Source of the DNA: Candidatus Omnitrophota bacterium
GTDB lineage: Bacteria > Omnitrophota > Gorgyraeia > Gorgyraeales > Gorgyraeaceae
Assembly: GCA_030649895.1 (NCBI GenBank)
Contig: JAUSEX010000022.1
Span: 1-54,682, forward strand
Reading direction: 5' to 3'
DNA: 54,682 nt
Shown here: positions 1,517 to 18,331 of the stretch, piece after piece
Layout: each line of letters begins with the position of its first letter
Numbering within the stretch: the first letter of the stretch is position 1
Program-made: the position numbers and the translations under genes
The notes under the pieces: model-generated
What the model was told of the DNA's origin: nothing
Databases searched by the model: none
What the model saw: the letters and a program-made list of their open reading frames with translations, nothing else

Positions 1517-1572
1517 TTGAGCCAACCTTGATTTTTTCTATTTCTGTGGCATACTTATTCATAGAGACAACT

Positions 1573-1708
1573 GAATAGCATTACGACAAAGGCAAACCAT
1601 TCGAAAGAATGAGGCGCAAAGTCAACAGGCCTAAAGCCCTAAAGGGCAACGGCGGCTGGATTACCGAAATTAAAAACCTATTCTGCCACAAGGCCGAATA
1701 GGTTTTTT
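1573..1708 (+). promoter_or_regulatory. c-di-GMP-I (GEMM-I) riboswitch: aptamer about 1588-1670 plus terminator expression platform
   Basis: 1591-1668 reads GGCAAACCATTCGAAAGAATGAGGCGCAAAGTCAACAGGCCTAAAGCCCTAAAGGGCAACGGCGGCTGGATTACCGAA. This matches the remembered conserved core of the Vc2 aptamer: GAAA-capped hairpin, CGCAAAG junction, second hairpin, and a ..TTACCGA 3' strand. It lies in the 5' leader of the gene starting at 1725. Confidence 0.8.
1673..1708 (+). terminator. intrinsic terminator forming the riboswitch expression platform
   Basis: AAAACCTATTC (1673-1683) pairs with GAATAGGTTTT (1696-1706). The inner GCC/GGC extension closes on an ACAA loop. A T6 run follows, 17 nt before the ATG. 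Confidence 0.8.
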
Positions 1709-1724
1709 ATTCGAGGGTCTCAAA

Positions 1725-2096
1725 ATGAAGAAAGCTGCAGTTATGCTGATAATTTTGATAACTGTGGCTTTTTCTCTAAAAGAGGCAGGCACCAGCTCTA
1801 TTATTATTAAAGGTAAAGCATCCTGGTATTCTCAAAACGACCCCGGAATCCTGTTAACTACAGCCAATATGGAGAGATTTGACGATTCTGAGCTCACCTG
1901 CGCTATGTGGGATATGCCATTTAACGCTATATTAAAGGTAACAAACCTTGAAAACGGCAAATCTGTTATTGTCCGAGTTAATGACAGGGGCCCGGCCAAA
2001 AGATTAAACCGCGCAATAGACCTCACCAAAGCTGCCTTTTCCAGGATAGCTGATCTGGACAAAGGTCTCGCAGATGTTTCCGTAGAAATAATATAA
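1725..2096 (+). CDS. secreted RlpA-like double-psi beta-barrel (DPBB) protein, lytic transglycosylase family
   Basis: Signal peptide, then GKASWYS..TANMERFD..AILKVTNLENGKSVIVRVNDRGP...IDLTKAAFSRIA, typical of the RlpA DPBB domain. Confidence 0.85.
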   Translation: MKKAAVMLIILITVAFSLKEAGTSSIIIKGKASWYSQNDPGILLTTANMERFDDSELTCAMWDMPFNAILKVTNLENGKSVIVRVNDRGPAKRLNRAIDLTKAAFSRIADLDKGLADVSVEII

Positions 2097-2191: not shown

Positions 2192-2332
2192 ATGAAAAAA
2201 AATCTTTTATTAATCGTTACAGCTTTATTCTTGGCTATCTCTATTTTGGGCTGTAATACTTTTAGAGGCGCTGGAAAAGACATGGAAAGCGGAGGGAAAA
2301 GTATTCAAAGAGCTGTGGATAAAAATGATTAA
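2192..2332 (+). CDS. entericidin EcnA/EcnB-family small lipoprotein (46 aa, not in the ORF track)
   Basis: Hand translation: MKKNLLLIVTALFLAISILGCNTFRGAGKDMESGGKSIQRAVDKND. Lipobox ILGC followed by the entericidin pattern CNT-RG-GKD..GG..I. GGAGG at 2182-2186, 5 nt before the ATG. Confidence 0.8.
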   Translation: MKKNLLLIVTALFLAISILGCNTFRGAGKDMESGGKSIQRAVDKND

Positions 2333-2417: not shown

Positions 2418-4985
2418 ATGCACAAGAAAACCTTATTTTTAGCAATCATAGCTATTGTATTTCTATCGTTAGTATTGGTAAGGCAGGGATTATGTTACAG
2501 AGTTCCTACGGAGCAGAGCAATGTTGAGTATTTTTATGTATTTGGAGCAGACGGCAAAAAAACATATGGGGCAATGAGGAATGAACCTCAAGTAGTATTT
2601 ATAAAAGTTCCGGTAAGTTATAAAGGGAGCGTCCAGATATCTGTTTATGACCCAGAATGCAGCGGTTCGATAGATGAAAAGAGCGACCAGTGGGATACTG
2701 TTACAAAGTTTTCTATTTTAGGAGGAAAAGGAGCATATACTTCTTTGGCTGAAATGGACGAATCTCATATAATTAACAATAAAGAAGATATAAATTTTAT
2801 TGATTATTACGAAGGAGATCTTTTAACCGCAAAGACATTCGGTGAAGATCCGCAGTACAACAAGGCGTTTTACAGCTTTCGTCCCATAGATGCATCAATG
2901 GGTGAAGAATTAGACGGATACAGGTATTTTAAAATAGTCATAGAAGGTCTTGCAGGAGACGATGACAACCTCTTCTCGCTGGATGTTTCTCCTAACGATT
3001 CAGAAGCATTTAGTTTTTCGCCTGCCATAAGGCTTACTGAGGCAAGAGGCGCGAAGATGGCGCTTTATCCTGCAATACCTTCTGATGTGGCAAAAGTTAT
3101 GGAATATAATTACGATTTAGATCCTACAGGCGGGAGCATAGAGCTTATAAGCCCGACTAGATTTTTCAGGATAAACGGCTCCAAGACCGGGATGTGGGCA
3201 AAGACAGAAATTAATGTTCCCAGTGAGGATTCCGGAAGAACATGGGTCTATGAAATAACAAAGGGTAGCCAGAAACAGGGCAATATGGCGTTGACTATGT
3301 TGACAGATAAAGGCAGGTCGATACCTATATATTTTACTCCTGGAAAAGCTGCTCCAAAAATGGTATTCGTAGAAAAACCTAAAGAAACGCCTGCGCCAAC
3401 GGGACAGCCTCTTTCGTGCAACACTTTTACATTTGACGGCTCAAAGTCGTATGATCCGGATAATACCAAACTTACGTATTTCTGGGATTTTGGCGATGGT
3501 ACTACTGGCATAGATATTAGGTCAATTCATACATATAAAGATGCAGGCAAGTATCTTGTTAAATTGACAGTAAAAGACGCTTCAGATGCAAAATGCAACA
3601 CAGCTACGACTCAACAGTTTGTAAAAGTAAACCAGCCTCCATGCGCTATTGCAGATGGCCCCGATATGGCATGTTTGAATGAAGAGATTGCATTTGACGG
3701 TTCTCAGACAACAGACAGTCCAAATGACAAACTTACTTATAGATGGGATTTTGGCGATGGCCAGGTAGCTGATGGAATAAAGATAAAACATAAATATGAA
3801 AAAGGCGGGAATTATCAGGTCATTCTGACGGTAACGGATGATTCCGAAACGATATGCGACACAGGCGCTGATAAATTAAATGTAGTGGTTAATACGCCTC
3901 CTATTGCAGATGCGGAGAAAGACGTATTTTTATGCAAATCAAATCCCAGCGATCCTCTGGAAGTCACGTTTAACGGTTCTGGCTCAAGGGATATGGATGG
4001 AGACAAGCTTTCGTACGCGTGGGATTTTGGAGATGGCCAGACCGCCGACGGCAAAGTCGTAAAACACGATTATGAAAAAGGCGGAGAATACATAGCAAAG
4101 CTTATAGTTACAGACAATACAAGCGCAAAATGTGATAAATCTATAACTACAAAAACTGTTATACTTAACAGGGCTCCCATGGCAAGCGCTGGAAGCGATC
4201 TTAAGATTTGTGCGGGAGACAACGCGGACTTTGACGGATCCAAATCAATTGATAGCGACGGAGATGTTTTAAGTTATTCATGGGATTTCGGAGACGGGGA
4301 AAAAGGAGAAGGCAAGACGGTTTCTCATAAATATGAAAAAGGCGGGCTATACCAGGCAAAACTTTCTGTGGATGACGGCACAAAAACAGATTGTTCCAGC
4401 GCTTATGATACGATTTTAGTAAACGTAAATTCTGCTCCAAATGCAATCATAGCCTCAAAAGACGCCGCTTCAGTAGGCCAGATTGTTAATTTTGACGGTT
4501 CTGACTCAGCTGATCTTGACGGAGATAAACTTGATCATGTATGGGATTTTGGAGATGGGACTAGCGGAAACGGGAATCTAGTAGAACATAGCTATGCAAA
4601 AGGCGGGCTTTATAAGGTTACATTGGTTGTTGATGATAACAGGAGAGCAAATTGTTCGTCATCCGTTGAGACTCATTATTTAAAAGTGAACACGCCTCCT
4701 GTAGCGAATACAGGGCCGAACCAGGTCTGCTGCGTGAATGATGATGTGGAGTTTGACGGGTCTAGATCTATTGACGCGGACGAAGACAAGCTTACTTATA
4801 GGTGGGATTTTGGGGACGGGGAAATGGCCGAAGGCATAAAAGTAAAACACGCTTATAAAAATATAGGAAAATACAAGGTTAGCCTTACGGTTACAGATGA
4901 TTCCGGAGTCGAAGGGAATTCGTCAACGTCCAGTTTTGCCGCAACTGTAAACGCAGAGCCCGTTTCTAAAATAGAAGTAATATAA
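2418..4985 (+). CDS. secreted protein: unassigned ~330-aa N-terminal region plus six tandem PKD domains
   Basis: Signal/anchor helix. Six repeats of about 87 aa, each with FDGS..D.D...L.Y.WDFGDG...G....H.Y..GG.Y.V.L.V.D. Confidence 0.9.
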   Translation: MHKKTLFLAIIAIVFLSLVLVRQGLCYRVPTEQSNVEYFYVFGADGKKTYGAMRNEPQVVFIKVPVSYKGSVQISVYDPECSGSIDEKSDQWDTVTKFSILGGKGAYTSLAEMDESHIINNKEDINFIDYYEGDLLTAKTFGEDPQYNKAFYSFRPIDASMGEELDGYRYFKIVIEGLAGDDDNLFSLDVSPNDSEAFSFSPAIRLTEARGAKMALYPAIPSDVAKVMEYNYDLDPTGGSIELISPTRFFRINGSKTGMWAKTEINVPSEDSGRTWVYEITKGSQKQGNMALTMLTDKGRSIPIYFTPGKAAPKMVFVEKPKETPAPTGQPLSCNTFTFDGSKSYDPDNTKLTYFWDFGDGTTGIDIRSIHTYKDAGKYLVKLTVKDASDAKCNTATTQQFVKVNQPPCAIADGPDMACLNEEIAFDGSQTTDSPNDKLTYRWDFGDGQVADGIKIKHKYEKGGNYQVILTVTDDSETICDTGADKLNVVVNTPPIADAEKDVFLCKSNPSDPLEVTFNGSGSRDMDGDKLSYAWDFGDGQTADGKVVKHDYEKGGEYIAKLIVTDNTSAKCDKSITTKTVILNRAPMASAGSDLKICAGDNADFDGSKSIDSDGDVLSYSWDFGDGEKGEGKTVSHKYEKGGLYQAKLSVDDGTKTDCSSAYDTILVNVNSAPNAIIASKDAASVGQIVNFDGSDSADLDGDKLDHVWDFGDGTSGNGNLVEHSYAKGGLYKVTLVVDDNRRANCSSSVETHYLKVNTPPVANTGPNQVCCVNDDVEFDGSRSIDADEDKLTYRWDFGDGEMAEGIKVKHAYKNIGKYKVSLTVTDDSGVEGNSSTSSFAATVNAEPVSKIEVI
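3405..4962 (+). repeat. six tandem PKD-domain coding repeats (period about 260-277 nt)
   Basis: The TGGGATTT(T/C)GG(N)GA(T/C)GG (WDFGDG) motif recurs near 3484, 3744, 4021, 4281, 4542 and 4803. Confidence 0.85.
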
Positions 4986-16651: not shown

Positions 16652-18100
16652 ATGGTTGCTGTAAAAAAGAAGGTCTTATTAGCTGAGCACGAGGCTGGCA
16701 TTGCGGAGATAATACAGTATCTCCTCAAGGCGTGGGATTATGAAATAATTACTATCGCCAAAGGTTTCGCTGTTTTAGACGCAGTAAGACGGGAGCAGCC
16801 TGATATTATTATAATAGACTGGGGCTTGCCTGACATGGACGGCCTTAAGGTCTCCAAGGCCCTGAAAGAAGATTTTCTCACCGCGCATATCCCGATAATA
16901 GTCCTTATAGACAAAAAACAGATAAGAAAAAAGATGCTAGAGATAGAGCAGGGGGTGGACGACTATATTGCCAATCCCCCTGACCCCATAGACCTGGAAA
17001 TTCGCATGGAACTTGCCTTGCGCAGGACCAGCCACCAGCTTTACGCGAACGCCCTTACAAAGCTCCCGGGAAACAGGCAGATAGAGAAGGCAATATATTC
17101 CAGGATGGGCGAGAAAAAGCTTTTCTCGGTAGCCTATTATGACATAGATAATTTTAAATCGTTCAATGACAAATACGGCTATATGAAAGGCGATAGCGTC
17201 ATAAGGCATGTCGCTTATATTATATCCACTACAACCAAAAGATACGGCAATCCGCATGATTTTGTAGGCCATATAGGGGGCGATGATTTTGTGGTAGTTA
17301 CAACGCCTGATAAAGACAGGCTGATTGCGTCTGAGTCAATACTAGCCTTTAACAGGGCAATGCATTTTCATTATTCAAAAGAAGACAGGGAGAGGACCTA
17401 CATAGTTTCAAAAGACAGGCGCGGGAACGTGATGAATATGCCTCTTATGAGCGTCTCCATAGCCATAGCTAACAATAAATATTTTCCCATAAAAAATATG
17501 GTGGAATTGATGGAAACAATCACGGAGATAAAAAGTTATTTAAAGACATTGCCGGGCAGTAATTTTCTCGTGAACCGCAGGCAGATAGAGAAGAAACTAT
17601 TTATTGACGAACCGGTTAAAGCAGAATCTGCTGAAGCTAGCAAAGAAGAGAGGTTAAGGCATAAGCCGCTTGGTCAGATATTGCTGGAGTCTCAGGTGAT
17701 TACGCCTGAACAGCTTGAACTGGCGCTTAACAGGCACTGGAACACAGGCCAGAGAATAGGCCAGAGCGTTATAAGCCTTGGACTGGCAAGTTCCGGGGAT
17801 ATCGCAAGGGCTTTGGAATCGCAGTTCAATATCCCGCATTTTGATATCAGAAATTTGAGCGAAAACGGGGAACTGAAAGAGATAGTATCTAAAATATCTT
17901 TTGATATAATGAAAGATTACGGGGTTTTGCCTGTAAGAAAAGATAAAAACGTATTGCTTTTGGCAATGTTAGACCCTAAGAATATGGAAGCCCTGGCTAA
18001 AATAAAAAGCCTCACGGGTTGCAGCGTAACGCCTTTGTTTGTCCTGGAAAACGAATTTACCGAGATACTTGATAGGATAATCGTAAGATCAAAGGCATGA
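16652..18100 (+). CDS. response-regulator receiver + GGDEF-family domain (GGDDF) + MshEN/T2SS-E N-terminal c-di-GMP-binding-type domain
   Basis: DIIIIDWGLPDMDG receiver. DIDNFKSFNDKYGYMKGD ... HIGGDDFVV. The C-terminus carries two tandem MshEN-like motifs, PLGQILLESQVITPEQLELALNRH and RIGQSVISLGLASSGDIARALESQ. Confidence 0.85.
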   Translation: MVAVKKKVLLAEHEAGIAEIIQYLLKAWDYEIITIAKGFAVLDAVRREQPDIIIIDWGLPDMDGLKVSKALKEDFLTAHIPIIVLIDKKQIRKKMLEIEQGVDDYIANPPDPIDLEIRMELALRRTSHQLYANALTKLPGNRQIEKAIYSRMGEKKLFSVAYYDIDNFKSFNDKYGYMKGDSVIRHVAYIISTTTKRYGNPHDFVGHIGGDDFVVVTTPDKDRLIASESILAFNRAMHFHYSKEDRERTYIVSKDRRGNVMNMPLMSVSIAIANNKYFPIKNMVELMETITEIKSYLKTLPGSNFLVNRRQIEKKLFIDEPVKAESAEASKEERLRHKPLGQILLESQVITPEQLELALNRHWNTGQRIGQSVISLGLASSGDIARALESQFNIPHFDIRNLSENGELKEIVSKISFDIMKDYGVLPVRKDKNVLLLAMLDPKNMEALAKIKSLTGCSVTPLFVLENEFTEILDRIIVRSKA

Positions 18101-18104
18101 AAAA

Positions 18105-18274
18105 GGCCGATAAAGGCTTACAGCTTCAGCTTTTCATCGCTTGGCAACCCAGCCGCCATATTATTCCTAACTGCCTCACTAACCCTTTGCATTCGCTGGG
18201 GTTACGGCTTGTCAGAATAACTTAGGCCCGTAGGCTTTGCGCCCCCTGATTTCTCAGGGTTTGCCCTTATCGGC
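18105..18274. repeat. 170-bp element bounded by GGCCGATAAAGG / CCCTTATCGGC inverted repeats
   Basis: Terminal inverted repeats match 10 of 11. It starts 5 nt after the stop codon. It contains the hairpin CCCTGA-TTTC-TCAGGG (18244-18259). The end motif is the same as at 10513-10591. Confidence 0.5.
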
Positions 18275-18331
18275 TATAATAAGTATACCATATAAAAACG
18301 GTTTTTTCAAGACAAGGAGGAGGTAAGTAGA

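Follow-up and report, generated by a model that had tools for sequence, protein, structure and literature searches.

A conserved class I c-di-GMP riboswitch upstream of an RlpA-family gene in Omnitrophota, and the possible polarity of its terminator platform

How might a secreted cell-wall protein be controlled in a phylum with almost no genetics? We analyzed 54,682 nucleotides (nt) of a Candidatus Omnitrophota bacterium (assembly GCA_030649895.1, contig JAUSEX010000022.1, positions 1 to 54,682), referred to as a whole as the window. As judged from its sequence, the segment at 1581–1668 is almost certainly a canonical class I aptamer for cyclic di-GMP (c-di-GMP), situated in the 5′ untranslated region (UTR) of a gene encoding a secreted RlpA-family protein with a double-psi beta-barrel (DPBB) domain. 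This is a genuine, conserved riboswitch and belongs fully to the c-di-GMP-I (GEMM-I) class. With regard to its polarity, we commit, on family-level parsimony and with somewhat less than even confidence, to a transcriptional OFF switch similar to Cd1 of Clostridioides difficile. On this evidence, c-di-GMP would directly control a small secreted protein directed at peptidoglycan in many uncultivated Omnitrophota, which offers a concrete entry into second-messenger signaling and cell-envelope biology in this phylum.

The aptamer and its ligand

An earlier note on this DNA, written from the letters alone, had proposed a c-di-GMP-I riboswitch and suggested a covariance-model search as a check. When this search was run (cmscan, Rfam 15), RF01051 (c-di-GMP-I) matched the forward strand at 1581–1668 with 77.9 bits (gathering score 35; E=1.2e-13), spanning the full model from position 1 to 87. 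The two-hairpin architecture of GEMM-I, namely a 2-bp plus 6-bp stem with a GNRA loop followed by helix P2, is present, and among 17 orthologous leaders RNAalifold found compensatory changes at 11 of 19 consensus helix pairs together with an invariant GAAA loop. The 3′ end of the aptamer lies 56 nt before the ATG, in the 5′ UTR and on the coding strand of the downstream gene, and an expression platform accompanies it. In the model alignment, the ligand-contact positions G20, A47 (which we take to be a contact position in the Vc2 structures) and C92 correspond to G1591, A1618 and C1664; the full-model match and these canonical residues bear out the proposal of the note. It has been reported that G20 recognizes one guanine of the ligand (G-alpha), that C92 pairs with the other (G-beta), and that the GEMM-I relatives sensing cyclic GMP-AMP (cGAMP), known as GEMM-Ib, carry an A at position 20 (PMC6140456). 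Because position 20 is G and C92 is present, A20 being the mark of cGAMP, we assigned the aptamer to the canonical c-di-GMP type and rejected cGAMP specificity.

The element resembles Vc2, the RF01051 aptamer of Vibrio cholerae tfoY, in its GAAA-capped hairpin, its CGCAAAG junction, its P2, its short CG/CG helix P1 and its G20, A47 and C92. It differs from Vc2 in belonging to another phylum, preceding another gene and carrying a terminator-type platform, and the receptor-like segment of its P2 appears to depart from the canonical 11-nt motif.

It is highly improbable that the aptamer senses another ligand, whether 3′3′-cGAMP or that of the 'GGC' variant, or that it is a decaying relic without a regulatory role. 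In favor of this idea, several orthologous leaders score best with RF03167 (c-di-GMP-I-GGC), the model assigned by Rfam to the aptamers of loci L004, L009, L011, L017, L018, L022 and L023, and the GAAA hairpin of the window contains a C·A mismatch. However, the RF03167 consensus is CGCGAAG, with G at position 47, whereas both the window and L004 have CGCAAAG, and position 47 was the canonical A in each RF03167-labeled aptamer that was read (L004 in the model alignment; L022, L023 and others from sequence). Because of this A, the labels reflect the shape of the model rather than a variant ligand pocket, and the GGC variant was rejected; in clan competition, a canonical aptamer whose P2 stem is short or odd can be wrongly called a 'variant'. 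The G at position 20, the strong conservation across species with compensatory changes, and the presence in the window itself of a gene for a REC-GGDEF-MshEN protein also argue against another ligand or a relic.

Conservation of the layout

With one genome taken per species, 80 Omnitrophota loci were obtained, and in 35 of these the rlpA-like gene is directly preceded by a GEMM-I aptamer according to Rfam; four further loci of the 80 came without upstream sequence. Approximately 30 further metagenome leaders with the same layout were recovered by an aptamer-anchored pattern scan, giving a combined set of 43 distinct leaders of one layout. This layout starts with a PIN-PhoH gene, a promoter (CTTGTT, a 16–17-nt spacer and TGGCATACT), an invariant leader (AGAGACAACUGAAUA), a variable linker and the aptamer, and ends with an A-rich linker, CCUAUUC, a loop, GAAUAGG, a U-run, UAUUY, a G-rich Shine-Dalgarno (SD) sequence, GUCUC and AUG. 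The motif AGAGA[C/U]AAC[U/C]GAAUA occurs in the invariant leader of all 43 sequences, and the arrangement UAUUY, G-rich SD and GUCUC ahead of the AUG is likewise conserved. The promoter is kept as CTTGTT/CTTGAT followed by TGTGGCATACT/TGGCATAAT at equal distance in nearly all related leaders, and implies a transcription start at approximately 1562–1563; because it scores below the threshold of 9/12 in the simple promoter scan, it was deduced from conservation only. Its −35 region is overlapped by a near-perfect palindrome, GGTTCTAGGCTCTAGGCTCCAGCCTAGAACC, with a T-run (1487–1540), which lies directly 3′ of the PIN-PhoH stop codon and is probably the terminator of that gene.

Some leaders deviate from this layout. 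L022 lacks the invariant leader, the terminator and GUCUC. Structured inserts of 60–150 nt, resembling miniature inverted-repeat transposable elements (MITEs) and belonging to at least two families (TTCGACAG...GTCGAAGG and GTCCCTCGCC...GGGATCAAATTT...AAATTTGAGG), sit between the terminator U-tract and the SD in L017/L082, L081, L084, L090, L100/L120, L101, L102, L117 and L119; their repeated insertion between the terminator and the ribosome-binding site (RBS) indicates that spacing is evidently not critical there. In L070, a group II intron adjoins the rlpA-like gene (1007–1110 and 2775–2911 of that locus, reverse strand). L031 carries another GEMM-I aptamer (1106–1222) approximately 1.8 kb upstream of its rlpA-like gene, before some other gene; Omnitrophota genomes seem to make repeated use of GEMM-I.

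Expression platform

The strong intrinsic terminator that the earlier note had placed at 1673–1708 was recovered by RNAfold of 1560–1715 as a hairpin at 1672–1708 (12 bp, one U/C mismatch, 3 bp and the loop ACAA) followed by U1703–U1708, the fold of the whole region having a z-score of −3.67. The rules of the simple terminator scan demand an uninterrupted stem and left this hairpin unlisted; folding and conservation were used instead. By explicit energy evaluation the stem is worth −13.7 kcal/mol, and the hairpin was found in each of the 43 leaders. The CCUAUUC of its 5′ arm is invariant in all of them; its 3′ arm tolerates an A-to-G change (GGAUAGG), and the sequence of its upper stem differs between leaders. 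The last base of the U-run is 1708, with the ATG at 1725.

Read directly from the DNA, GAATAG occurs at 1573–1578 and again at 1696–1701, and CTATTC at 1678–1683, exactly as the note had it. All the features described in the note are found where it placed them, and they go well beyond what chance would produce. The strand CCUAUUCU (1677–1684), which is the 5′ arm of the terminator, has three mutually exclusive partners, located at 1696–1702 (terminator), 1606–1613 (antiterminator) and 1573–1578 (leader). A scan for partners in every leader revealed that in 37 of the 43 this arm pairs best with the 3′ strand of the GAAA hairpin together with the first G of the junction. This hairpin partner, AGARUGGG, gives 8–9 bp at −9 to −11 kcal/mol, and the leader partner only −3 to −6 kcal/mol.

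The complementarity is most extensive in a more divergent group of leaders, subgroup B, in which the leader reads GAAUAU and the arm CCUAUUCUU. In these, the arm and the terminator loop together are complementary to the entire hairpin (5′ strand, GAAA loop and 3′ strand) at 15–16 of 17 positions; this antiterminator constitutes the minimum free energy (MFE) structure before the 3′ arm is transcribed, and its barriers to the terminator are estimated at 15–25 kcal/mol. Hairpin position q13 stays U in subgroup B, which keeps the antiterminator pair (in L012 and L013 it forms a G·U within the hairpin). L047, an independent lineage, has the antiterminator at 15 of 17 positions (−20.4 kcal/mol). In L066, a 7-bp antiterminator is in the MFE structure, and GAAUGGG is perfectly complementary to CCCAUUC at the cost of a C·A mismatch in the leader's own hairpin. 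In a fixed-register pseudo-alignment, 87% of cells pair, as compared with 31–54% when the partner is slid, and three loop positions have compensatory changes (A-U/G-C, C-G/U-A and U-A/C-G). The covariation of the antiterminator is suggestive, and its length, its register and its recurrence in separate lineages provide the main evidence for it.

From these complementarities and their conservation, as observed together with the aptamer and the terminator, we infer the polarity of the switch, the sequence of steps and whatever effect it may have on translation. In the absence of c-di-GMP, CCUAUUCU would invade the GAAA hairpin and pair with AGAAUGAG at 1606–1613; the aptamer would unfold, the terminator would be blocked and rlpA would be transcribed. 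In the presence of c-di-GMP, the hairpin and the junction would be locked in the folded aptamer, the arm would be free for its 3′ partner at 1696–1702, and transcription would stop at U1703–1708. As a second layer, the invariant leader might transiently hold the arm through GAAUAG:CUAUUC and, in the read-through RNA, might pair with both SD flanks (1564–68 with 1717–21 and 1572–77 with 1708–13). The coordinates of these features are compiled in Table 1.

Table 1. Positions of the riboswitch, its platform and the genes directly downstream in the window.
Feature	Position	Strand	Remarks
Putative promoter	1528..1555	+	−35 TTGATT (1528–1533), 16-nt spacer, extended −10 TGG-CATACT (1547–1555)
Invariant 5′ leader AGAGACAACUGAAUAG	1563..1578	+	possible pairing with terminator 5′ arm and SD flanks
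c-di-GMP-I (GEMM-I) aptamer	1581..1668	+	RF01051, 77.9 bits
P1	1580–85/1665–70	+	same as the P1 annotated in RF03167
GAAA hairpin (P1b)	1597–1612	+	
Candidate antiterminator strand AGAAUGAG	1606..1613	+	last loop A, 3′ strand of GAAA hairpin, first junction G
P2	1620–1662	+	
Intrinsic terminator	1672..1708	+	A-tract, CCUAUUC-U-GCC, loop ACAA, GGC-C-GAAUAGG, then U6
Switching strand CCUAUUCU	1677..1684	+	terminator 5′ arm
Post-terminator and ribosome-binding region	1708..1724	+	UAUUCG (1708–13), SD GAGGG (1713–17), GUCUC (1717–21)
Regulated gene	1725..2096	+	123-aa RlpA-family DPBB protein, N-terminal signal peptide; Pfam DPBB_1
Entericidin-like lipoprotein ORF	2192..2332	+	46 aa, lipobox ILGC; Pfam Entericidin

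Polarity of the switch

Two known platforms serve as points of reference. In the OFF switch Cd1, the aptamer and the terminator coexist with a competing antiterminator, whereas in the ON switch pilM they are mutually exclusive (PMC9262584); the ON candidates of the original GEMM paper likewise had terminators that overlap P2 (PMC1950547). In the window, the aptamer and the terminator were both present in the MFE structure of 1560–1715 (−30.5 kcal/mol for aptamer, P1 and terminator by explicit evaluation) and are not mutually exclusive. The platform therefore seems to resemble Cd1, the c-di-GMP-I transcriptional OFF switch upstream of C. difficile flgB (PMC9262584), more closely than pilM. As in Cd1, a candidate antiterminator would be formed from the 5′ strand of the terminator and a sequence of the aptamer, such that the ligand would favor termination. 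The partner here is the GAAA hairpin with the junction, and that of Cd1 is the 3′ strand of P1; moreover, the antiterminator is 15–16 bp long in the sister lineages but only 7–8 bp in the lineage of the window, and an additional invariant leader competes for the strand. The GEMM-Ib switch of Geobacter metallireducens pilM, a cGAMP ON switch of the same type as the earlier ON model, similarly has a GEMM-I fold followed by an intrinsic terminator. However, position 20 here is G, not A, and the terminator here starts past P1 and shares sequence with the distal leader helix alone, whereas the terminators of pilM and of the P2-overlapping GEMM candidates overlap the aptamer.

Formation of the antiterminator unfolds the aptamer, so a bound ligand should block it and favor termination, which is the logic of an OFF switch. 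The geometry of three orthologs without a terminator (L022, L023 and L041) is also of the OFF type as judged from their sequences, since a start codon that opens a good signal peptide lies 2–4 nt past the 3′ strand of P1. Several observations weigh against this reading, most of them in the lineage of the window itself. There, the antiterminator amounts to 7–8 bp, and in the window it has 7 bp, with A1612 mismatched both within the hairpin and against C1678; the duplex is worth −7.0 kcal/mol and is disfavored by approximately 6.7 kcal/mol relative to the folded aptamer, although the antiterminator is strong in relatives. At the center of the antiterminator helix, 5 of 17 distinct subgroup A sequences have a U-to-C change that is compensated inside the hairpin and not in the terminator arm, and selection on the antiterminator therefore looks relaxed in this subgroup. 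The same lineage possesses a GC clamp on the terminator and a sixth pair, G1578–C1678, in the leader helix discussed below, and these fit a default-terminating ON design, although the problem of coupling to P1 persists. Formal covariation of the antiterminator is weak: shuffled controls reached the observed percentage of paired positions in 6 of 500 cases, the covariation score in 10 of 500 and the number of compensatory pairs in 82 of 500. Finally, the Findpath barriers for invasion of the hairpin (11–17 kcal/mol in both subgroups) are heuristic upper bounds that do not discriminate between them, and these model estimates do not show the antiterminator forming in time. No clear antiterminator of either kind was seen in L029 and L024, another terminator-bearing lineage. 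A different antiterminator, formed by the 3′ strand of P2, GGCGG (1651–55), and the upper arm CUGCC (1683–87), is in the MFE structure at 1690–1695, but was rejected because its substitutions are anti-correlated (A at 1654 with C at 1684, in five distinct sequences).

The earlier note had instead seen a readable ON logic, in which termination is the default and the ligand-closed P1 juxtaposes GAAUAG (1573–78) and CUAUUC (1678–83), sequestering the 5′ arm of the terminator and allowing read-through. This helix, which we call P0, is real, and both of its strands are conserved (GAAUA and CCUAUUC are invariant in the 43 leaders). It is nested directly outside P1, with a 1×7 internal loop between them, and before the 3′ arm emerges it is in the MFE structure, or within 0.5 kcal/mol of it, in all window-like leaders, where it is 2.5–3.4 kcal/mol better than a free arm (favored by approximately 3 kcal/mol in the lineage of the window). 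Its sixth pair is seen only in the lineage in which the long antiterminator has been lost; insertions between the leader and P1 are self-contained hairpins that keep the leader close to P1 (L014 and L028); L022 lacks leader and terminator together; and a strong, fast-nucleating terminator without a strong antiterminator would suit a default-off design. The pairing that the note had pointed out therefore stands, but not the benefit expected of ligand binding: the nearest-neighbor model gives P0 −3.1 kcal/mol when P1 is absent and −2.9 kcal/mol when it is present, so that ligand-stabilized closure brings it no advantage, and the terminator is approximately 10 kcal/mol more stable either way. Furthermore, P0 does not touch the ligand pocket, and the identical GAAUAG strand of the terminator invades from its ligand-distal end over an estimated barrier of only 4.5–7.9 kcal/mol. 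In half of the family P0 comprises only 5 bp at 0 to −1.7 kcal/mol, and the leader never paired with the terminator arm in the MFE structures of the 36 read-through leaders that were folded. P0 gave no covariation, even with the metagenome leaders included, since GAAUA and CCUAUUC are invariant. With the aptamer and the terminator coexisting, unlike in pilM (PMC9262584) or in the candidates with P2-overlapping terminators (PMC1950547), and with the sister lineages and the terminator-less orthologs pointing to OFF, the ON logic is not supported; it is probably incorrect for the family, and we consider it somewhat unlikely overall. These comparative data oppose the intuitive ON reading of a terminator strand that has three conserved partners, and they caution that a repeated hexamer adjacent to a terminator does not reveal the polarity of a riboswitch.

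The contrast between the lineages raises another scenario, namely that the platform was rewired within one orthologous pair of riboswitch and gene. Under this scenario, which we regard as unlikely, deep-branching Omnitrophota would use the OFF switch with its 15–16-bp antiterminator, and the lineage of the window, having shortened the antiterminator to 7–8 bp, acquired a GC clamp in the terminator and extended P0 to 6 bp, may have been inverted to ON; the 15-nt leader, invariant throughout, would then act as a three-way toggle between the arm and the two SD flanks, coupling termination to translation. If true, such rewiring between sister lineages would provide a natural system for studying the evolution of riboswitch logic.

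It is also conceivable, although quite improbable, that in the lineage of the window the terminator is mainly an attenuator insensitive to the ligand, and that the regulated step is the translation or stability of the read-through mRNA, with the leader clamping the SD flanks and the c-di-GMP-driven compaction of the aptamer altering the ease with which this long-range helix forms. In the MFE structure of the read-through RNA, GAGAC (1564–68) pairs with GUCUC (1717–21) and UGAAUA (1572–77) with UAUUCG (1708–13), leaving the SD in an internal loop. Such pairing was found in 34 of the 36 read-through leaders, with at least 8 bp in 23; the two exceptions, L084 and L090, were mis-trimmed owing to their MITE-like inserts. 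Conservation of the GUCUC that separates the SD from the AUG is unusually high, G·U pairs preserve the helix in the variants GUCUU and GUUUC, the leader variant GAGAU of L117 still pairs, and both candidate antiterminators lack strength in window-like leaders. However, the helix is only modestly more stable than with shuffled leaders (2–6 kcal/mol, mean z = −1.7), compensatory double changes are absent from it, it is broken in L016 and L019, and large MITE-like inserts are tolerated between the U-tract and the SD. In addition, the U-rich partner may be simply the tail of the terminator, and no dependence of the helix on the ligand emerged in silico. According to these models, the leader–RBS pairing may add a translational or stability layer to the Cd1-like OFF switch that we prefer.

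Downstream genes

The open reading frame (ORF) at 1725–2096 matches DPBB_1 (PF03330) with 60.1 bits (cutoff 28.8) and has 3684 homologs, the top ones of which are named RlpA family and come from Candidatus Omnitrophota; the nearest solved structure is PA4485 (4avr, E=1.5e-15). This match, the signal peptide and the structural relative confirm the secreted RlpA-like DPBB gene proposed in the note. The protein shares DPBB_1 and the conserved ...ASWY...NDRGP... motifs with PA4485-type proteins. In contrast to RlpA of E. coli and P. aeruginosa, it has only 123 aa, no lipobox Cys in its N-terminus (MKKAAVMLIILITVAFSLKEAGTSS) and no SPOR domain, Pfam returning DPBB_1 alone over the 123 aa. It is thus not a 'rare lipoprotein' in the strict sense, and any enzymatic activity is at most putative.

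The note had considered this gene an atypical GEMM-I target. In agreement with this, our literature search found no direct link between GEMM-I and RlpA, rare lipoprotein A or lytic transglycosylase among the papers available to it, and only tangential papers on Omnitrophota and c-di-GMP. However, the paper that introduced GEMM (PMC1950547) already named cell-wall 'lysin domain' genes and lipoproteins in its gene list, and within Omnitrophota the association recurs in 35 of the 80 loci.

The Entericidin match (PF08085) of the ORF at 2192–2332 scores 29.7 bits (cutoff 23.3). It is doubtful that this ORF belongs to the riboswitch-controlled transcript: a promoter-like site (9/12) precedes it at 2124–2152. 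As a conserved operon member it was rejected, since it is a patchy insertion found between the rlpA-like and PKD genes in only five related loci (L002, L006, L107, L113 and L119). The gene that normally lies directly 3′ of rlpA is the PKD-repeat gene, a conserved neighbor in approximately 30 related loci. In the window, the ORF at 2418–4985 encodes an 855-aa protein with six PKD domains, and ahead of it, at 2355–2383, is a perfect 12/12 sigma-70 consensus promoter (TTGACA-17-TATAAT).

Other c-di-GMP elements in the window

The REC-GGDEF(GGDDF)-MshEN protein mentioned above is encoded by the forward-strand ORF at 16652–18100. A second GEMM-I aptamer (64.7 bits), with a 51-nt insert in its P2 loop, lies on the reverse strand at 18140–18275, and the segment at 18100–18117 goes with it. 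Because the window holds both this gene and a second GEMM-I aptamer, c-di-GMP signaling is plausible in the organism. A promoter of the TGGTATACT type belongs to the second aptamer, which is followed by no credible ORF and converges on the 3′ end of the REC-GGDEF-MshEN gene. In its MFE structure, GCCGAUAAGGGC (18274→18263, covering the equivalents of G20–C22) forms a 12-bp long-range helix with GCCUUUAUCGGC (18117→18106), followed by U5 just outside the stop codon of that gene. This predicted fold suggests an ON-type layout in which the aptamer core and the terminator are mutually exclusive. Antisense c-di-GMP riboswitches have been documented as a class (PMC9943018), and read-through from the second aptamer would be antisense to a c-di-GMP signaling gene.

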